This document shows positions 1,244 to 43,235 of a stretch of 43,235 nt of DNA, piece after piece. The stretch lies in IMG/VR virus record IMGVR_UViG_2645727669_000018; one strand, 5' to 3'. Made by a program: the position numbers and the translations under genes. The notes below the pieces were generated by a model. The model saw nothing but the letters and a program-made list of their open reading frames with translations. It made no database searches and was not told the origin of the DNA. This DNA is from a virus. Lineage: Duplodnaviria > Heunggongvirae > Uroviricota > Caudoviricetes. The stretch's first letter is position 1, and the number at the start of each line of letters is the position of its first letter.

Positions 1244-2677
1244 TCAAGGCTGCCCAGTCTTACCAGCATCAGCAGAAACAGCTTTGAGGATATAGGGTTC
1301 CAGAAGTCTGGCAACGGCTTCAAATACTGGCACCACAACGGAGTTACCGAACTGCCGATATGACTGAGTATCTGAAACCGGAATACGGAATGGTTTCCCT
1401 CCAGGTTTTTCAAACCCCATAAGGCGTGCGCACTCTCGGGGAGTCAGCCTGCGTGGTCGACGAGCCTGGTTACTCTCATTCATAAAGTCAGCCTCTCCCG
1501 TTGCCATATCCCAACCACGATCAATAAGAATTTCTGATCCGTCTTTGTGATATCTGGCAGAAAGTGTGCGTGCAATGCTTTCCTTATTCTCAGGATTGAC
1601 CAACCCAAAGCCAAAACCATTCCCCTTGGCTGCATGCTTTTTGGCGTAGTTATAAAGGTACTCCCATAGTTTTGGCGTAAGTATATATTTACTGTCGACT
1701 ACAGGCTCCAGCAATTCACCAAATGATGGGCGGTGTTCCGGATAAAAACGACTGATATCACGCAAGGTAAACCCCTTGTGAATATTCAGATCTCGTCTAA
1801 ATCCGACCAGAACAATGCGTTCACGATGCTGAGGCAAAAAATGCTTCCCATCGATAATCTTTGGATCGTTTTTTCCCATTTCTGCAGCATCGGCAACTTC
1901 GTAGCCCAGCTCGTCAAGGGTCTCCATAATGACTTTGAAAGTTTTACCCTTATCATGGCTCTTCAGATTTTTGACATTTTCCAGCACAAAAATTGCCGGT
2001 TTTTTTGCTCGTATAATACGTGCCACGTCAAAAAAAAGTGTTCCTTGTGCTTCACATTCAAAACCATGCGCACGACCAAGTGAGTTTTTCTTACTAACAC
2101 CAGCAAGGCTAAATGGCTGGCACGGGAACCCCGCAAGAAGCACATCATGATCCGGCACATGCTCATCAATATATGCATAAGCATCCGTTTCCAATACATC
2201 GGTTTTATCACTCAGCGTGACTTCCCGAATATCGAGATTGAATTTATGCACCTGTTCATCGTTAAACCAGTTGGCCTTGTATGTACGCACAGCATCTTTA
2301 TTCCATTCACTGGTAAAAACACACTGGCCTCCAATGGCCTCAAAACCTTTCCGTATCCCTCCAATTCCAGCAAATAAGTCAATGAAGCGGAAAGCATATT
2401 CCGGATGGTTTGCAGGTGGTTCTGGTAGCATCTTACGCAGAAGAGACTCTTCTACTGAAGTCAACGATTTTGGTAAACACTTGCCATTAATCCAGCGGTT
2501 GATGGTTTCACGGCTCCACTCATTTTTTCCGACTTTTCTCAGTAATTCAGCCACATACTTCTGATCATAGATTTCCAGCACTTTCTCGATAAGCTTTTTA
2601 TCATTTTCCTGTCGCAGCTTTTCTTCCGCCTCGGCTTCCTTCAGCAGATGCTGTGCCAACACTTCAAATTCAGACAT
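1244..2677 (-). CDS. ecoRIIM: DNA (cytosine-5)-methyltransferase, M.EcoRII/Dcm-like
   Basis: C5-MTase motifs in translation: [10 protein letters not shown] (motif I), GFPCQPFS (catalytic Cys, motif IV), FVLENV (motif VI), QFGNSV (motif X). Start moved from ORF-track 2719 to ATG 2677, which has GGAGG 5 nt upstream and gives 477 aa. Confidence 0.9.
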
Positions 2678-2984
2678 AATTCCTCCAAGGGGTCTAATGG
2701 GTGAAACTCTATCACTCATTCAACCCAGAAGGAAATGTTTTATCTGGATATTTAAACAGTGACTACAACGTAATCTAGCACTGGTGATGCTTTGTTAGGC
2801 ATAGAGAATCATTCTATATACGACTAATGACAGAAAAACAGCAGACAAGTAGTTTGTTCATAAATTAACGCATACTACGTGCCTACGGTTTTCGAGACCG
2901 GTCCAATCATCAAACGAAACATAAAATTAGCTCACATTATGAGGAAAAGTATCTTTTTTGTACTATGTAAATTCAAAGGCTTAG

Positions 2985-3854
<870 letters not shown>

Positions 3855-3911: not shown

Positions 3912-4466
3912 TCATTTATCTCCGACCGGAAACTTCTTATACAGTGTCGATATACCAACATCATAGATGATCGCCACCTTCTGGCGAGGAACGCCTGATG
4001 CAATTAATCGCCCGGCCTGCGCCCATTGTTCTGGTGTAAGTTTGGGACGACGTCCACCAATTCGTCCCTGTGCGCGAGCAGCTTCCAGTCCAGCTTTTGT
4101 TCGTTCAACAATCAGTTCTCGTTCCATTTCAGCCAGGGCACCCATCACATGAAAGAAAAAACGCCCCATCGGTGTGCTGGTATCAATAGCATCCGTCAGG
4201 CTGCGAAAATTAACGCCACGTTCGCGCAACTCCTCAACCAGAATGACCAGATGCCGCATACTACGCCCTAGCCGATCCAGCTTCCAGACAACCAGAGTGT
4301 CACCTGCCGATAATGTCCTGAGCAGTTTTTTCAATCCCGGCCTTTCGGACTTTGTACCGCTTATCTTGTCTTCAAAAATCAGCTCGCATCCTGCACAGTT
4401 CAGCGCATTACGTTGTAGATCTGTGTTCTGGTCATTTGTTGACACACGTACATAGCCAATAAGCAT
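3912..4466 (-). CDS. pin: Serine DNA invertase, Pin/Gin/Hin/Cin family
   Basis: MLIGYVRVSTNDQ...WKLDRLGRS serine-recombinase catalytic motifs and C-terminal HTH; 184 aa from ATG 4466 with GGGAG-type SD upstream; adjacent to an invertible tail-fibre segment. Confidence 0.9.
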   Translation of the reverse strand: MLIGYVRVSTNDQNTDLQRNALNCAGCELIFEDKISGTKSERPGLKKLLRTLSAGDTLVVWKLDRLGRSMRHLVILVEELRERGVNFRSLTDAIDTSTPMGRFFFHVMGALAEMERELIVERTKAGLEAARAQGRIGGRRPKLTPEQWAQAGRLIASGVPRQKVAIIYDVGISTLYKKFPVGDK

Positions 4467-4520
4467 GGTAGATCTCCCTGACAAAAGCAGGAATGATGCC
4501 ATTTGCTCGTTATTTCTGCA

Positions 4521-11365: not shown

Positions 11366-11397
11366 AAAATAAAAAAGCCACCTATTAGAAGGTGGCC
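11366..11397 (-). terminator. Rho-independent terminator downstream of the tail-cluster moron
   Basis: Minus-strand RNA ggccaccuu-cuaau-aggugg followed by UUUUUUAUUUU; 7-bp GC-rich stem; abuts the SD of the next late gene. Confidence 0.7.
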
Positions 11398-11416: not shown

Positions 11417-11947
11417 TTAGCGAGTCAGAAACAACGAATCTTTATACTTTTGCTGTTGTTCATTTAAATACTTAGCTGTTTCATCGCTGGCAAATGGAAA
11501 TATTACCGTATTTTTAGGCATGGTAATTTCTTTTTTGTCCAGCGTCAGAGTAAACATAGGAACATACTGAGCAGAGTAACGCACCGCAGAAACGAGCTCT
11601 AGTTTAGACTCTTCAATAACACTTAAATTATCCAGGCTAACTTTCTCTTCATCTTTTTTCTTTGACGCATTTAAAGTTTTTATTACTTTATTTAATTTCT
11701 CCTGAAAATCCTCCTTAAAGTTTTCAGGATTGCCGTCGACAACAAGAATCTGTTCACCCTGATTATCTGGAAAAATAATCTTTGCACTTATCAATTTATT
11801 TTCTTTATAAACATCACCAAGTTTTATGGCTCCTCCAGATAACTGAATAATATGTTCATCTTTAAAGGAGATGTTGCCAGAGATTATGAGAGATGAAAAA
11901 ATAGCCGCTGCTCCAAGAATTACACTTGCTGTGATATAGCCTTTCAT
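11417..11947 (-). CDS. Hypothetical exported/membrane-anchored protein (moron inside tail operon)
   Basis: 176 aa, visibly AT-rich, Lys/Asn-rich; N-terminal hydrophobic segment (VILGAAAIFSSLIISG) suggests signal peptide or anchor; own candidate promoter and terminator. Confidence 0.6.
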   Translation of the reverse strand: MKGYITASVILGAAAIFSSLIISGNISFKDEHIIQLSGGAIKLGDVYKENKLISAKIIFPDNQGEQILVVDGNPENFKEDFQEKLNKVIKTLNASKKKDEEKVSLDNLSVIEESKLELVSAVRYSAQYVPMFTLTLDKKEITMPKNTVIFPFASDETAKYLNEQQQKYKDSLFLTR

Positions 11948-23949: not shown

Positions 23950-24300
23950 TCACTTTAACCGTTCACGGGCCGTCTTCGCCTTATGACACGGCCAACACAG
24001 ACTCTGCAGATTACAGTCGGCATCAGTGCCGCCATGCGCTTTAGGGATGATGTGGTCAACGGTTTTCGCCTCACGCACCACACCGGCACGCAGACATAAC
24101 TGACATAAACCTTTGTCACGCTTCAGCACACGCGCGCGGATAGCGTCCCACTTCGAACCATAACCGCGCTGATGACGGGACTGACCTGGCTTGTATTGCT
24201 TCCAGCCTTCGCTTTTGTGGCTTTCGCAGTAGCCTGACGGGTCTGTGGTTGTAGAGCGGCAGCCGCGAACACGGCAGGCTTTTGGGGTTCGTGGTGGCAT
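23950..24300 (-). CDS. HNH endonuclease (packaging-associated)
   Basis: 116 aa with Cys-rich zinc-finger pairs and HNH core (VDHIIPKAHGG...N...H); GGAG SD; positioned before TerS. Confidence 0.85.
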   Translation of the reverse strand: MPPRTPKACRVRGCRSTTTDPSGYCESHKSEGWKQYKPGQSRHQRGYGSKWDAIRARVLKRDKGLCQLCLRAGVVREAKTVDHIIPKAHGGTDADCNLQSLCWPCHKAKTARERLK

Positions 24301-24311
24301 TGGTAAGCTCC

Positions 24312-24343
24312 AATAAAAAAGCCACCATCGATTGCTAGTGGCT
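24312..24343 (-). terminator. Rho-independent terminator downstream of lysis-packaging moron
   Basis: Minus-strand RNA agccac-(12-nt loop)-guggcu followed by UUUUUUAUU, ending 4 nt before the HNH SD. Confidence 0.55.
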
Positions 24344-24379
24344 TAGCATCTACTAATGTTACTAATGTGAAGAGTAGGT

Positions 24380-25162
24380 TTATTTTTTCTTCTTATTTAA
24401 CTTATCTAAATTGACGGGATCTTTCCCTGTGGCAGCTAAACACCAAAAAGAATAACTCTTTTGCATGACATAGGTTCTAATTCTCTCTAATGTTTCATTA
24501 TATTTTTTCTCAACAACCTGTATCGCATGTTCAAATAAATTAATCATATCAACATGCTCGTCCTCGACACCAATCATGCTCAGTTGTTTTCTATCTGTCA
24601 CTGCTTGATAAAATGTTTTCCCATTTTTCCTTATTAGTAACAATGAAGTTTCTGCTGACTCATAGTCTTGGTTGCCGCTATGTGCTGCAAAATTATGCCT
24701 GTAGTTAATAATACAGTCATGCAACCCAAAATATTCAGAATCAAGCCAATCACGCTCCATCTTTAACTTTCTCCCTTTAGCTTCAGAGAAAGCTTTACCA
24801 TAAAACGTTAGGCTTGCCACAAATAACGCTCTAATTTCACTTGATAAATCTAGATCAAGTATATTCCCGTATAACTTGCCATCTGTCCTTAATTCGTTTC
24901 TCCCTGCCAGTTCATTAGCTATTTGGTACCACTCTTTAGCACTTTTTAAGTCCCTATGAATTAGGGACAGTGAAGATGCTCTATCGGCAATACGCCCACT
25001 CAATTTTATGCGATCTACAATTTCATTATTGAATGTATAAACCGCTTTAAATTCCCCCGTTTCGGAATCAATATAATATTCAACATCTAACCCTTCATAT
25101 GATTCACACCCGGGACCTTCTAATTTTTTTCTTTTCATATAGAATATCCATATACGTTTCAA
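24380..25162 (-). CDS. Hypothetical protein (AT-rich moron between Rz and HNH)
   Basis: 260-aa ORF (TTG at 25162; first ATG at 25138 gives 252 aa); Lys/Asn/Tyr-rich, visibly AT-rich; no recognisable motifs; own terminator. Confidence 0.6.
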   Translation of the reverse strand: MKRIWIFYMKRKKLEGPGCESYEGLDVEYYIDSETGEFKAVYTFNNEIVDRIKLSGRIADRASSLSLIHRDLKSAKEWYQIANELAGRNELRTDGKLYGNILDLDLSSEIRALFVASLTFYGKAFSEAKGRKLKMERDWLDSEYFGLHDCIINYRHNFAAHSGNQDYESAETSLLLIRKNGKTFYQAVTDRKQLSMIGVEDEHVDMINLFEHAIQVVEKKYNETLERIRTYVMQKSYSFWCLAATGKDPVNLDKLNKKKK

Positions 25163-25219
25163 TTCTCAGTCAGCATAGTAGAAAAAAAAGATGTCCAGAT
25201 CCATACATCGAAAGCAATT

Positions 25220-25684
25220 TTATTTTTCACACTGACTAGAGATATAGTCCTGCAATGCTCTTATCTGTTTATAACTGATTTCAATTCTCTCTCTGAGGGT
25301 GAAATAATCCCGTTGAGCGGTGTCAGTAAGTCGGGGGGCGGTAGCATCATCCAGGCTGGTGGTAATGGTCGTTGATTGCACTCTCGGGCAACTAGCGGCG
25401 AGGAACAGCCGCTTAGTGCCAACAGCAACATCACGCTGAAGCTGTTCAATAGTTGCTTTAGCATTTGCAAGTTCTCCGGTGTATTTCGCATCGAGCGCAG
25501 AAACATCACGCTGGCGCTGCTGCATCTCAGTAATGGTGGCGTTCGCCTGGCTGAGTTTTTCCTTCGCTTTATCGCGCTGTTCTTTGTAGGCGATGGCGTT
25601 ATCACGATAATGATTAACAGCCCATGATAGGCAGACGATGGTGCAGATAACCAGAGAGGACAGAATCGCAGTTACTCTACTCAT
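25220..25684 (-). CDS. Rz: i-spanin Rz
   Basis: From internal ATG: [30 protein letters not shown]..., close to lambda Rz (from memory); contains embedded Rz1 in +1 frame. Confidence 0.9.
25261..25464 (-). CDS. Rz1: o-spanin Rz1 (embedded in Rz)
   Basis: 67 aa: MLKQLL...LLALSGCSS (lipobox LSGC) then Pro-rich [22 protein letters not shown], as lambda Rz1. Confidence 0.8.
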
Positions 25685-26627: not shown

Positions 26628-26665
26628 CCACAGAAACGACAAAACCCGCTCGACGGCGGGTTTAA
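26628..26665 (-). terminator. tR'-like intrinsic terminator upstream of the lysis genes
   Basis: Minus-strand RNA aaacccgc-cgucga-gcggguuu followed by UGUCGUUUCUG; 8-bp GC stem; about 140 nt upstream of holin start. Confidence 0.55.
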
Positions 26666-26785: not shown

Positions 26786-27727
26786 ATGAGTACAGAAAAT
26801 AAGAATAAAACCAGGCGAGTGAGAGTTGGTTTTTTCACTGGTAATGGAAGCAAAAAAGATGGCACATCTGCTGCAAAACTAGCCTTTGAGCAAATGACCA
26901 CAGCAGATACTGTAACTTTTCCAATAACTTACACAACAGACACCCCAAGTCGAGGGTTAAAGTTAGTTATTCTTCAAAAAGATACCACACTGCAATGTTA
27001 CTTTGGTTACGTATCGTGGAGAAGGGAATGCCTACTACCGTTCATCGAGGATGCTACAGGTAGTGAGAGAACAATTCCTTTAAATGATAAAGATTCTGTA
27101 GTTGAAAGAACATATTTTATCTATTACTACGAAACGGACTTATTAGCTATGACCCTCAACCATATAGGGCCCAAAGTAAATGATCTGGCATTCATTTTGT
27201 ATAACAAAACTGATTTAAAAAGCGTCACTTTTGAAGCCATTTGGAAACAAGAGAGCATGAAGGAACTGCTTGAGGACGGAAATATCCTACGTAGTTTCGA
27301 TCTTATAGTTGCTGCTCCAAGAAACTTTAACAAAGCTAATTATAAGATTAAAAACCCTTTAGCTAATGAAATTATTGACATGGTTGTTGGTATGGGCGGG
27401 TCGCATCTAAGATTAAATATGCGAGGTCGGATTCGCCCGAAAAAACAAGGGTTTAACTATCTAAAAACTTCTGTCACCGATGCTATTAAGGAACTACTTG
27501 AACTTTTTCCAAAAGGTTCTGGAGGTCTAAAAATTAAAAAAATTGATGTAACAGAGCCATCCAATAGAACGCCCAAAAGTCTACTTGACCAAGTATTGGT
27601 CAGTACAAAGACAATCATTGTCAAAAGCGGTTATCCATCCGATTCTGATATCAGAACGGCGATGATATCTGCTAAAATTGATAACGCGAACTATCTTGCA
27701 CAGTATGAGCTCGCTAGCAGAGACTAA
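26786..27727 (+). CDS. Hypothetical protein, first gene of a two-gene Q-S cassette
   Basis: 313 aa, AT-rich, on the strand opposite to the late genes; no recognisable motifs; stop 21 nt before the partner gene start. Confidence 0.7.
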   Translation: MSTENKNKTRRVRVGFFTGNGSKKDGTSAAKLAFEQMTTADTVTFPITYTTDTPSRGLKLVILQKDTTLQCYFGYVSWRRECLLPFIEDATGSERTIPLNDKDSVVERTYFIYYYETDLLAMTLNHIGPKVNDLAFILYNKTDLKSVTFEAIWKQESMKELLEDGNILRSFDLIVAAPRNFNKANYKIKNPLANEIIDMVVGMGGSHLRLNMRGRIRPKKQGFNYLKTSVTDAIKELLELFPKGSGGLKIKKIDVTEPSNRTPKSLLDQVLVSTKTIIVKSGYPSDSDIRTAMISAKIDNANYLAQYELASRD

Positions 27728-27748
27728 TAACCAAGCATGGAGGACACA

Positions 27749-28198
27749 ATGAGAGAATTAGCCACTTTTCTCTGGAAATGCGTCCTCTGGATTCTGTTGA
27801 CCTATGCAGCGACAAAACTGTTTAAACCGATGAAGCATGCTGACGTACTCACAACAGCGGGGGTGCTCTCGACTATATCAGGCATCCTGTTTGGTTTTGT
27901 TCTGGCTGCAATATCTATATTTAGTAGTGCAAACAGCGATAAGGAAGGAGCAATTAATGCCCTTAAGCAAAACAACGTGTTACCAACTCTGGTAAATAGA
28001 TTACTTTCAACAGGGTTAACTCTCATCGTCGCATGTATATTTCCATTGATAGCGATGTTTCTACCTGATGATGTTATTGTTGCGGGCAAACCTATTGATT
28101 TCCTGTTCATACTGTTAGGCTTATCCTCCCTTATAATTTCGCTATATACCTTCGGAAGGTGTTGGTTAGTGTTACGAAAAATCTTCCCCCACTTGTGA
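27749..28198 (+). CDS. Small polytopic membrane protein, second gene of Q-S cassette
   Basis: 149 aa from ATG 27749 (GGAGG 5 nt upstream; ORF track starts at 27737); about four hydrophobic helices. Confidence 0.7.
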   Translation: MRELATFLWKCVLWILLTYAATKLFKPMKHADVLTTAGVLSTISGILFGFVLAAISIFSSANSDKEGAINALKQNNVLPTLVNRLLSTGLTLIVACIFPLIAMFLPDDVIVAGKPIDFLFILLGLSSLIISLYTFGRCWLVLRKIFPHL

Positions 28199-38880: not shown

Positions 38881-39087
38881 ATGCTGAACCTCGATTGTGT
38901 TCCAATCTCAACTTATTGCAAAGAAACTGGCGAAACTCCTGAAGCAATAAACAAACGTGTACAGCGCGGTGTTTGGCGTGAAGGTGTTCAGGTTTTAAAG
39001 GTTGAAGGCGTTAAGGAGAGGTGGATTGATCTTAGTGAGGTTGCAAAATGGGCCAGACAAAACTGCTCAAACTACCGCGCGGCGTAA
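38881..39087 (+). CDS. xis: Excisionase-like protein
   Basis: 68 aa from ATG 38881 (GGAG SD); small basic protein overlapping the integrase start as in lambda xis-int. Confidence 0.55.
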   Translation: MLNLDCVPISTYCKETGETPEAINKRVQRGVWREGVQVLKVEGVKERWIDLSEVAKWARQNCSNYRAA

Positions 39088-40220
39088 CAATCAGGAAACA
39101 CCGCCTGGGCGAAACGATCAATATAACTTTCACCTATAAAGGAGTTAAATGTCGTGAGCCTCTTTCCAATCTGGAAGTAATACCAAAGAACATAAAATAC
39201 GCCGAGCGCACACTCGGCGAAATTCATAATAAGATCGAAAGGGGAACATTCATTTATGCGGAATATTTTCCCCGTTCTGCTCGTTTGAAAATTTTTGGTA
39301 ATGCTGCTGCAGGCAAAACGGTAAAAATGTACCTGGACGAATACCTTGAAATCTGCGAAACGAGAAAACTTTCACCCTCTACGATTGGTGGTTATAAAAA
39401 ATGCCGTAGTGCGTTAGCCTCACTCCACATTTGCCCTGCAAGTGAATTAACACCAGCAATCCTGAAAGCGTGGATTCAAAGCCAGAAAACGACCTTAAAA
39501 ACAATTCGCAACCAGTTATCTTTCCTGCGGTCAGCACTTGATGAAGCCGTAACCGATGGGGTACTTCAAATTAACCCCGTATCGTTGGTAACTGCTTCGC
39601 GCTACCAAAGTGATAAGTCAGAAGCAGAAAGCAGCTACGTGGTTGATCCGCTATCACCAGCAGAAGTTGATGCATTACTAGCAGCAGCCGGAAACAAACA
39701 ATGGGAAAATCTGTTCCGGTTCGCTATACATACAGGCCTGCGTAGTTCTGAATTATGTGCCCTTCGATGGCGTGATATCGACTTTGTTGGAAAAACTGCC
39801 CATGTCCAGAGCGCAAGTGTTGTCGGTGTTATCAAAGGGACAAAGACAAAAGCAGGTACTCGGAAAGTTGAACTGACAGAAGAGGCAATGTTGGCGCTGA
39901 TAAATCAGAAGCCATTTACATTCATGAAGGATGCTACTGTCTTTGAAGATCCAAAGACCAATAAGCCTTGGGCAAGTGCTGATGCAATTAGGAAAAAAGC
40001 ATGGGTGCCAACATTGCGAAAAGCAGGTATTCGTTACAGAAACCCATATCAAACCAGGCATACATTCGCCACCAGCCATATCAGCCGAGGAGCAAACCTG
40101 TTTTGGCTTGCAGCTCAAATGGGGCATAAAGGGCCGGAGATGCTTTTCAGGCACTATGGTTCGTATCTTAAAGAGTATGATAACTTTACATCGATAAATC
40201 ATTTGCATAATCATAATTAA
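39048..40220 (+). CDS. int: Tyrosine integrase (lambda Int family)
   Basis: 390 aa; C-terminal catalytic region with conserved Arg, HxxR-like and terminal Tyr context (RHTFATSH...LFRHYGSY). Confidence 0.9.
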   Translation: MGQTKLLKLPRGVTIRKHRLGETINITFTYKGVKCREPLSNLEVIPKNIKYAERTLGEIHNKIERGTFIYAEYFPRSARLKIFGNAAAGKTVKMYLDEYLEICETRKLSPSTIGGYKKCRSALASLHICPASELTPAILKAWIQSQKTTLKTIRNQLSFLRSALDEAVTDGVLQINPVSLVTASRYQSDKSEAESSYVVDPLSPAEVDALLAAAGNKQWENLFRFAIHTGLRSSELCALRWRDIDFVGKTAHVQSASVVGVIKGTKTKAGTRKVELTEEAMLALINQKPFTFMKDATVFEDPKTNKPWASADAIRKKAWVPTLRKAGIRYRNPYQTRHTFATSHISRGANLFWLAAQMGHKGPEMLFRHYGSYLKEYDNFTSINHLHNHN

Positions 40221-40261: not shown

Positions 40262-41041
40262 TTGATTACAATTACATTCGACAAACTAATCACCTACATA
40301 TCTTCAGTTGGTACTTTCATTTCAGCAATTGCTGCATTATATGCAATATGGTTAACGATATTTCAAAGAAGGCTCTCTTATAAACCCAATTTAGTGATAG
40401 ACACTTTAAATGTCAAGATGAATGTTAACGATTTCAACGGTTTTCATGTTGATATCTTACAAGCCCCTACGCTTCCACAAACAAAATTTTCAAACATAGG
40501 ATTGGGGGCGGCAATTTCACTTAGATATCATTGGGATTTTAATTATAAAAAAAACATAAATCTATACTTAGAGTTGTTTTCGAAAAAATTCAAAAAAGAA
40601 GATAAATCTTTTACAACCGACTCCCAGTATGGAATGTTCAAAATAATAAAAGAAAGAAAAGTATATATGTACAATACTTTATCGACACCTTACGATATTG
40701 ATTTTTCGTTACCATATAGTATAGATAAGAAGTCAAAAAACATTTTTGTACCAACCGCGGCAATTGATATTCTATTGAATATAGCATATCTTTCACATAG
40801 ACTTAAATTAGTCGGTTCTTCATCATTCACTGGTCCAAAATTAATTATTGAATATCAAGATATAGAGGGTAAAACTAAAAAAGTCACTTGGCAAACAAAA
40901 TTGGAACGTGGAGTGGCACGTTTCAGTGGTGATAATATGGAGGCAGATTTTGCACTACGGTTTACACCTGTACCAGAGAAATGGACTACAAAAGGTCTAG
41001 AGAAGATACGCAAAAGCGCCGCAAACGCCATGTTCAGATAA
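40262..41041 (+). CDS. Hypothetical membrane-anchored protein (AT-rich cargo between int and att)
   Basis: 259-aa ORF from TTG 40262 with N-terminal hydrophobic helix (ITYISSVGTFISAIAALYAIWLTIF); Lys/Asn/Ile-rich; no recognisable motifs. Confidence 0.55.
   Translation: MITITFDKLITYISSVGTFISAIAALYAIWLTIFQRRLSYKPNLVIDTLNVKMNVNDFNGFHVDILQAPTLPQTKFSNIGLGAAISLRYHWDFNYKKNINLYLELFSKKFKKEDKSFTTDSQYGMFKIIKERKVYMYNTLSTPYDIDFSLPYSIDKKSKNIFVPTAAIDILLNIAYLSHRLKLVGSSSFTGPKLIIEYQDIEGKTKKVTWQTKLERGVARFSGDNMEADFALRFTPVPEKWTTKGLEKIRKSAANAMFR

Positions 41042-41367: not shown

Positions 41368-43235
<1,868 letters not shown>

Follow-up and report, generated by a model that had tools for sequence, protein, structure and literature searches.

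An AT-rich single-gene moron between the lysis and packaging genes of a lambdoid Escherichia coli prophage encodes a probable HEPN-type protein

Introduction

What does a lone AT-rich gene, lodged between the last lysis gene and the first packaging gene of a prophage, encode, and does it serve the phage or the lysogen that carries it? We addressed this question for positions 24,312 to 25,162 of the Caudoviricetes record IMGVR_UViG_2645727669_000018 (IMG/VR), a stretch of 43,235 nucleotides (nt) called here the window; the gene is referred to as the cargo gene and its product, of about 250 amino acids (aa), as the cargo protein. A moron, in the sense of Hendrix and colleagues, is an extra gene in a phage genome, and an earlier description of this stretch made from its letters alone (hereafter the sequence-only reading) had proposed such a gene here. 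We find that the cargo gene is a horizontally acquired moron in a variable slot, that its product is a probable member of the HEPN superfamily, and that it may act as a stand-alone anti-phage RNase.

Results

The cargo gene and its product

The region holds a single long minus-strand open reading frame (ORF) between an Rz-type spanin gene and an HNH endonuclease gene, with two possible starts:

24380..25138, minus strand: cargo coding sequence, 252 aa plus stop (ORF list; Prokaryotic Genome Annotation Pipeline, PGAP, as WP_001407090.1; PHROG 8440)
25160..25162, minus strand: alternative in-frame TTG start giving 260 aa (ORF 24380..25162), probably unused (ORF list)

In E. coli R12, whose DNA at this locus is 100% identical, PGAP calls the protein from the ATG (WP_001407090.1, 'hypothetical protein'). 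The match of the cargo protein to phrog_8440 (2e-117) begins at residue 9 of the TTG form, and its homologues, like the PGAP call, start at MKRKK; the 252-aa ATG form is preferred because all three begin there.

The composition of the ORF is clearly foreign, with a GC content of 0.354 and a GC content at third codon positions (GC3) of 0.308, against 0.48-0.59 and 0.46-0.65, respectively, in the neighbouring genes (flanks ~55% GC). The GC profile, a check that the sequence-only reading had itself named, bears out its description of the gene as AT-rich, and the ORF, at 252 aa (ATG) or 260 aa (TTG), agrees with the protein of roughly 250 aa that it had placed between Rz and HNH. The richness in Lys, Asn and Tyr that it had also noted is present as a mild bias and no more (K 9.5%, N 5.2%, Y 5.6%). 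The N-terminus, MKRKKLEGPGCESYE, is not hydrophobic, and the gene product is cytoplasmic.

An invariant HEPN-type motif in a predicted helical core

The cargo protein has no match in Pfam, NCBIfam or PADLOC (PADLOC-DB v2.0.0, none at E up to 1; this search had been proposed together with the GC profile), and its sole family match is PHROG 8440, whose function is unassigned. Relatives are numerous: a word-indexed search gave 197, and an exhaustive profile search gave 882 clusters at the 50% identity level, of which 162 scored below 1e-30. The 114 family members that were aligned range from 217 to 273 aa and carry no fused domains.

Five residues, Y113, R123, H140, R147 and H153, are invariant in these 114 members, which are 19-41% identical to the query. 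R147 and H153 are also invariant in an alignment of 56 members; their spacing is 5 in 114/114, and position 148 is occupied by H in 58 members, by N in 50 and by D in 6, and by no other residue. The HEPN signature is Rx4-6H, with a residue after the arginine that is 'typically polar (mostly N, D or H)' (PMC3710099). The spacing and the following residue thus match the HEPN signature as published, and the description of this protein as lacking recognisable motifs does not hold. Note that HEPN RNases are metal-independent, with a composite active site formed by two HEPN domains (PMC3710099). The features of the protein map on the window as follows:

24680..24700, minus strand: codons of the Rx5H motif, R147-H-N-F-A-A-H153 (sequence and family alignments)
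24674..24853, minus strand: most conserved core, residues 96-155, comprising helix 2, an 18-residue insert and helix 3 (entropy ~2.0 bits)
24998..25138, minus strand: variable N-terminal beta-strand region, residues 1-47, a candidate sensor or oligomerisation surface (model strands, low conservation)
24578..24673, minus strand: beta-hairpin between helices 3 and 4, residues 156-187 (strands E160-171 and E174-185; variable)

The family alignment yielded a confident AlphaFold2 model, with a predicted local distance difference test (pLDDT) of 87.3 and a predicted template modelling score (pTM) of 0.83. It comprises strands E3-7, E13-23 and E30-36, helices 49-81, 96-115, 134-151 and 198-225, and a hairpin at 160-185, and the conserved core is predicted to be a HEPN-like four-helix bundle. 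In this predicted structure, helix 3 contains R147, and H153 follows the end of the helix by two residues; residues 116-133, between helices 2 and 3, are non-helical and conserved (G122, R123). Conservation is concentrated in the core 96-155, which includes all five invariant residues and has an entropy of ~2.0 bits; the C-terminus, like the N-terminal strands and the hairpin, has ~3 bits or more. Within the hairpin, E160 and Q185 are invariant in the 56-member alignment. A Foldseek search of PDB and BFVD, again as the sequence-only reading had proposed, gave nothing below E 0.1; the whole modelled fold, with its beta elements, thus has no close solved or viral counterpart in these two collections.

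Profile links to known HEPN families

The most recurrent match of the family to a known one is to Pfam HEPN_AbiU2, found at relaxed thresholds in 4/114 members (E 0.036-0.1, best 0.036); in one of them, P0129, the match covers residues 122-148, i.e. helix 3 with RNNYTAH. This faint signal was the sole one from scans of 56 and of 114 members; the 114 members scanned individually against NCBIfam and PADLOC showed no recurrent family, and sequence profile searches of the PDB with two alignments showed no relevant chain.

We then compared the family with HEPN seeds by hhalign. In single-sequence comparisons, too weak to decide the matter, 3/10 HEPN seeds taken from the supplement of DefensePredictor aligned R-N-x3-H in register with the family motif, against 0/5 non-HEPN controls; the RiboL-PSP-HEPN seed was an orphan in homology search. 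A 52-member profile of PF18736 (HEPN_pEK499_p136), the best of ~10 seeds tried, aligned to the family over 30 columns with its arginine on R147 (P 0.0044; hhalign probability 7.9%). The reversed template gave E 0.73, and the score of 24.7 was reached by 0/120 shuffles of 7-column blocks (mean 15.6, standard deviation 2.6) and by 6/120 shuffles of 15-column blocks, the latter agreeing with a similarity located in the motif helix; these controls favour a genuine local resemblance. Overall, the links agree with one another and are weak, and membership of the cargo protein in the HEPN superfamily is probable.

The same conserved residues admit another interpretation, namely a conserved helical protein outside the HEPN superfamily, either an enzyme using H140, D141, H148, H153, R123 and Y113 (for instance a metal-dependent phosphohydrolase or a nucleotide-modifying enzyme) or a non-catalytic binder with some other role in lysogenic conversion. 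The matches just described are faint enough to leave it some room, while the invariant Rx5H motif and the modelled bundle point to HEPN; we regard this alternative as unlikely.

A published defence prediction for the same protein

Among the predictions of DefensePredictor (Science 2026, PMC13092281) is an E. coli protein of 252 aa, cluster WP_001407090.1, entered as a 'Putative novel defense gene', with a mean log-odds of 8.2 for the cluster where the authors' strict cutoff is 4 (PMC13092281). The columns for HHblits and Foldseek similarity to known defence proteins are empty for this cluster, which appears only in Table S10 (predicted, uncharacterised) and not in the tables of tested systems (PMC13092281). 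In the supplements examined, including the table of validated proteins, the strings AAHSG, TAHSG, RHNFA, YGKCF and YGKAF are absent, and the only proteins with FYGK are two unrelated ones in Table S4. A full-text literature search with WP_001407090.1 and the PHROG numbers returned nothing; the prediction was found only through a search of supplements.

The cargo gene is a moron in a variable slot

The slot that holds the cargo gene is bounded by the following two genes:

25220..25684, minus strand: Rz-type spanin gene, last of the lysis cassette (Pfam Phage_lysis 2e-40; PGAP 'lysis protein')
23950..24300, minus strand: HNH endonuclease gene, first of the packaging module (Pfam HNH 5e-15; PGAP)

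Upstream on the minus strand, the lysis cassette consists of a lambda-family holin, a GH24 endolysin and the Rz-type spanin; downstream, the HNH endonuclease is followed by a P27-family small terminase, large terminase, portal, HK97-type protease and capsid, and the tail genes of this prophage include a sheath. The nearest sequenced phage at the cargo locus is Shigella phage SfI, from which we take the window to be an SfI-like lambdoid E. coli prophage.

Of 5,426 complete E. coli genomes, 23 have the cargo gene; each has it once, with 98.7-100% identity, and in one case it lies on a plasmid record. The three E. coli contexts inspected have the same arrangement as the window. The flanking lysis or HNH/terminase genes, on the other hand, are matched in thousands of genomes. 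In prophages with closely related flanks, the slot contains iss (the bor homologue, on the opposite strand), a DUF6979 gene with a KilA-N gene, a DUF6236 gene, two hypothetical genes, or essentially nothing, as in locus L027, where it is without an extra annotated gene. In alignments of related prophages, homology breaks off at the borders of the slot, with the stop codon of Rz on one side and a point a few bases before the start of HNH on the other. The slot is thus variable in relatives, the composition of its content differs from that of the flanks, and a terminator, which belongs to the slot, lies downstream. These data clearly indicate that the cargo gene is a horizontally acquired single-gene moron between the spanin and the HNH/terminase genes, as the sequence-only reading had argued from composition and placement; the foreign composition and the comparison of presence and absence across related prophages agree with it.

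The same pattern bears on the proposal that the protein is a lysis accessory or a virion or packaging protein belonging to the core programme of the phage. Its position between the lysis and packaging modules is the one thing that speaks for it. Almost all related prophages with the same flanks lack the gene and have unrelated genes in its place; its composition is foreign, early regions and an inovirus have homologues too, and no lysis or structural family resembles its product. An accessory role in lysis or virion structure is ruled out by the presence/absence pattern: homology to a lysis or structural protein conserved in all relatives, the finding that the sequence-only reading had said would count against cargo, was looked for and not found. 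The core-programme proposal is effectively refuted by this pattern and hardly deserves further credit.

The single plasmid record, L003 (NZ_CP104632.1, E. coli plasmid pHNAH212872-2, 100,861 bp), carries the same module, from Q through the lysis, cargo, HNH and terminase genes to the capsid gene. The record was deposited as a circular plasmid, which may reflect a phage-plasmid, insertion of the prophage into a plasmid, or an error of assembly. A tblastn search of plasmids found nothing besides this same prophage on the 100-kb plasmid record.

Homologues in other phages and the genes beside them

Beyond E. coli, the family spreads over Enterobacteriaceae, Pseudomonas, Burkholderia, Vibrio and many metagenomes, with named sources in Citrobacter, Paraburkholderia, Burkholderia, Pseudomonas and Vibrio. 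In Citrobacter prophages, a homologue with 50% identity lies between the lysis genes and a lambda-type terminase, and in a prophage with different lysis genes a homologue with 60% identity lies between LysC and HNH/terminase. The homologues of Pseudomonas prophages are solitary and run against the early genes around them, that of coliphage 2H10 lies between int and xis, and Burkholderia gladioli has a chromosomal homologue beside a Tlde1 toxin gene. The inovirus Vibrio phage 10N.286.54.E4_PE002 (Tubulavirales; L014, 6001-6717) carries a 33%-identical homologue in its accessory region, to which the depositors attached the note 'endonuclease'. The family therefore moves between tailed and filamentous temperate phages, as these contexts show, and such solitary movement from one accessory slot to another, in temperate phages that are not related, is the behaviour of cargo for lysogenic conversion or defence.

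No conserved partner gene was found in any homologue context examined, and we reject a two-gene toxin-antitoxin pair on this ground. This also bears on the idea of a solitary toxin or addiction gene that stabilises the prophage, or of a selfish toxin regulated post-translationally, with no part in phage defence. Such a gene could do without a partner, and the contexts examined hold no conserved small one; in the window, the gaps on either side of the cargo gene are 79 nt (cargo stop to HNH start) and 81 nt (Rz to cargo start). We consider this idea quite improbable. As a separate observation, two small ORFs (77-81 aa and 63-89 aa) lie on the same strand ~90-1300 nt downstream of the homologue in most of the Pseudomonas prophages L009-L013; L012 has only the first of them, and both are absent in the E. 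coli and Citrobacter contexts and in another Pseudomonas context, L019.

A late-operon position without a recognisable promoter

25139..25219, minus strand: intergenic spacer of 81 nt upstream of the cargo ATG, with a weak GGA before the ATG (sequence and promoter scan)
24312..24344, minus strand: terminator-like hairpin and T-tract, a slot-boundary feature (scan, fold and sequence)

A consensus scan, which is weak evidence either way, found no sigma-70-like promoter in the 81-nt spacer upstream of the cargo ORF and a 9/12 match upstream of the Citrobacter homologue. By alignment, the spacer is not conserved with the upstream regions of homologues.

These observations raise the possibility that the protein is a nuclease made late, through the Q-dependent operon, for the benefit of the phage, and gives the lysogen no protection. 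It would cleave RNA of the host or of a competitor during lytic growth, and so serve to shut off the host, to counter its defences or to exclude phages that infect the same cell. The cargo gene runs in the direction of the late genes between Rz and HNH, 81 nt from its upstream neighbour and with no sigma-70-like promoter; in locus L018 the HNH gene follows the homologue after 10 nt, without a terminator; and homologues occupy the same late-operon slot in three phage backbones. Against this stand the placements typical of lysogeny genes, i.e. the Pseudomonas homologues set against their flanking early genes, the int-xis position in 2H10 and the presence in a filamentous phage that has no lytic late operon, and the fact that nearly all related prophages dispense with the cargo gene. 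A role confined to the late phase of the phage's own growth is, in our view, rather improbable.

Downstream of the cargo gene, the hairpin (24344..24319, 9-bp stem) is followed by TTTTTTATT, with the T-tract reaching 24312. The Shine-Dalgarno sequence of the HNH gene, GGAG (24311..24308), abuts the T-tract, and its ATG lies at 24300, seven bases on. The folding energy of the hairpin is modestly better than that of shuffled sequences (z = -1.9). The same junction of hairpin, T-tract and GGAG before HNH is found with other cargo in phage SfI (L001) and in an Iss-carrying E. coli prophage (L023); because it accompanies different cargo, the hairpin is a property of the slot boundary. The sequence-only reading was thus right about a terminator-like structure just ahead of the HNH Shine-Dalgarno sequence; that this terminator is the cargo gene's own, as it had supposed, is not supported. 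The stem sequences differ among the window, SfI and Iss-type junctions upstream of HNH (24308-24344 in the window), which suggests selection for termination at this place in the late operon; presumably the terminator is read through by the Q-modified polymerase.

The likeness to an insertion in the tail cluster, also pointed out in the sequence-only reading, turned out to be stronger than claimed. The tail-cluster ORF 11417..11947 (minus strand) is followed by a hairpin, a T-tract, GGAG and the start of the next late gene, the layout seen at the cargo gene, and an exact 15-mer, GGTGGCTTTTTTATT, is common to the cargo terminator (24312-24326) and the tail-insertion terminator (11368-11382), both on the minus strand, with 0 expected by chance. 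The tail insertion itself encodes 176 aa at a GC content of ~0.31, has no Pfam or PADLOC match, and is preceded by a promoter-like site with an extended -10 at 12010-11983.

Other cargo in the window prophage

The left end of the window holds a full-length homologue of PD-T4-3, a known single-gene defence, at 3030-3854 on the plus strand (PADLOC E 3.4e-139; Pfam GIY-YIG). It is adjoined by a C5 cytosine DNA methylase gene (1244-2719, minus strand; Pfam 4.7e-78) and has a resolvase/invertase gene nearby (3912-4502). With this homologue, the prophage has a second defence cargo, one that can be recognised as such, in a slot other than that of the cargo gene; we count this among the context in favour of the defence reading.

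An AT-rich pair of genes at 26786-27727 and 27737-28198 (both plus strand; GC 0.38 and 0.42) lies between Q and the holin gene, opposite to the late genes. The first encodes 313 aa (PHROG 7651) and the second a hydrophobic protein of 153 aa (PHROG 8552) with only sub-threshold matches to membrane families; neither has a Pfam or PADLOC match. In all three E. coli loci that were compared, the pair accompanies the cargo gene; it may be a further cargo system, of two genes. About 150 nt upstream of the holin gene, a strong terminator-like hairpin (26642-26663, minus strand; 8 bp, 5 of them GC) occupies the site expected of a tR'-type terminator of the Q-dependent late promoter; if it is tR', the late promoter would fall downstream of the inserted plus-strand pair.

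The most AT-rich ORF of the window (40262-41041, plus strand; GC ~0.30, 259 aa) has no Pfam or PADLOC match and lies between the integrase gene (39048-40220) and an IS21 IstB gene (41434-42168). It is a candidate cargo gene at the prophage end.

Discussion

Weighing the defence reading

We infer, with a probability of about one half, that the cargo protein is a stand-alone HEPN-type RNase carried as abortive-infection or exclusion cargo, the inference covering its RNase activity, its phenotype, its trigger and its expression in the lysogen. An abortive-infection or exclusion function had been put forward as a mere possibility in the sequence-only reading; the HEPN motif and modelled fold, the solitary homologues and the DefensePredictor score make it a more specific and more likely proposal.

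Several points weigh against it. Many, though not all, HEPN families have a second conserved acidic residue in helix 2, typically as Ex3[K/R] (PMC3710099); in the cargo family this motif is not evident and helix 2 has no conserved acidic residue, the nearly invariant D63 being located in helix 1. There is no statistically solid link to a HEPN family, given Pfam E values of 0.036-0.1 and an hhalign probability of 7.9% over 30 columns, and PADLOC does not match the cargo protein. The overall validation rate of DefensePredictor is 45%, rising with the score (PMC13092281). The main weakness lies in expression: the cargo gene runs in the direction of the late operon and no promoter was found, where a defence gene would be expected to be expressed in the lysogen, and it is this co-orientation together with the lack of a recognisable promoter that keeps the late-benefit alternative alive.

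Proposed mode of action

As an abortive-infection RNase, the cargo protein would be an endoribonuclease that needs neither metal nor partner. HepS, Tha and AbiV serve as models for its control: it would be kept silent, probably in an oligomeric state, until a component of an infecting phage switches it on; the active protein would then cut tRNA or mRNA, so that translation stops and phage production is prevented. The variable N-terminal strands and the beta-hairpin would be the best candidates for the surface used in sensing or assembly.

More tentatively, and with distinctly lower odds than the defence RNase as such, the family may be a new HEPN family of self-contained sensor-effectors, with a two-layer site (Rx5H plus H140, R123 and Y113) and a variable beta-sheet sensor formed by the N-terminal strands together with the hairpin that lies between helices 3 and 4. 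From its position in the late operon, such a protein would be made in the lysogen and also during the prophage's own lytic growth; its trigger would thus have to be a late protein of a foreign phage, and it would have to be blind to the prophage's own version.

Significance

The candidacy of this gene for defence is already in a published supplement, and it is the HEPN assignment and the catalytic residues that appear to be new. Defence by single HEPN proteins of prophages is likewise known, with sensing of phage structural proteins and tRNA cutting as recent findings (HepS, PMC13043305; Tha, PMC11087260), so that the novelty here would be the architecture of the family (Rx5H, additional invariant His, Arg and Tyr residues, and beta insertions) in the bor/iss slot. 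Should the protein be an active defence RNase, a sizeable new family would join the anti-phage repertoire, the bor/iss slot between the lysis and terminase genes of lambdoid prophages would prove to be a hotspot for defence genes, and, with the gene inside the late operon, a one-gene system would be at hand for asking how a prophage avoids triggering its own abortive-infection protein. Should it be inactive, it would be one more uncharacterised moron. In practice, the analysis provides a hypothesis of catalysis that can be tested (R147, H153, H140), where the published predictor had flagged the gene and offered no hint of its function.

Comparison with known systems

By position, the analogue of the cargo gene is lambda bor or E. 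coli iss, which lies in the same lysis-to-packaging slot, for iss with near-identical HNH/terminase flanks. Iss/Bor confers serum resistance. It is a small lipoprotein (97 aa for Iss) encoded on the opposite strand, whereas the cargo protein is a cytoplasmic, sequence-unrelated protein of 252 aa encoded in the late-gene direction; a Bor/Iss-like lipoprotein is ruled out for the cargo gene, which has neither a signal sequence nor homology nor any Pfam match.

Among HEPN families, AbiU2 (PF18734, HEPN_AbiU2), a lactococcal Abi family, shares the conserved Rx4-6H, and its match covers helix 3 with R-N-x4-H of family members. It differs in that the match reaches 12.6 bits against a gathering threshold of 26.8, that ~28 profile positions align and that the window protein itself has no match. 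PF18736, a 'HEPN family nuclease' found in the validated DefensePredictor system DS-28, has an RxSVAH motif whose invariant arginine falls on R147, with the preceding helix aligned. Its members are of ~160 aa, with Rx4H and a partner gene, while those of the cargo family are of ~240 aa, with Rx5H, and solitary.

The closest likeness in the proposed mode of action is to HepS (STM14_3211, R100-x4-H105), a single-protein HEPN abortive-infection anticodon nuclease of the Salmonella prophage Gifsy-1 (PMC13043305). In its resting form HepS is an inactive tetramer; the tail-tip protein of an incoming siphovirus opens it, and HepS then cleaves the anticodon loops of tRNAs (PMC13043305). In the Gifsy-1 (LT2) record, the candidate ORF for HepS had no PDB match and no ORF has R100/H105, from which we conclude that this record does not carry hepS. 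As far as could be tested, the cargo protein is not homologous in sequence to HepS, AbiV or RnlA. Tha, from S. aureus prophages, is another prophage HEPN RNase that is activated by a structural protein of the incoming phage, and it faces the same problem of self-activation at induction (PMC11087260); it belongs to another host and phage group and serves as a mechanistic analogue only. If the tentative sensor-effector proposal is right, the cargo gene would be a second, independent case of the HepS/Tha logic, in a different family and a different slot.

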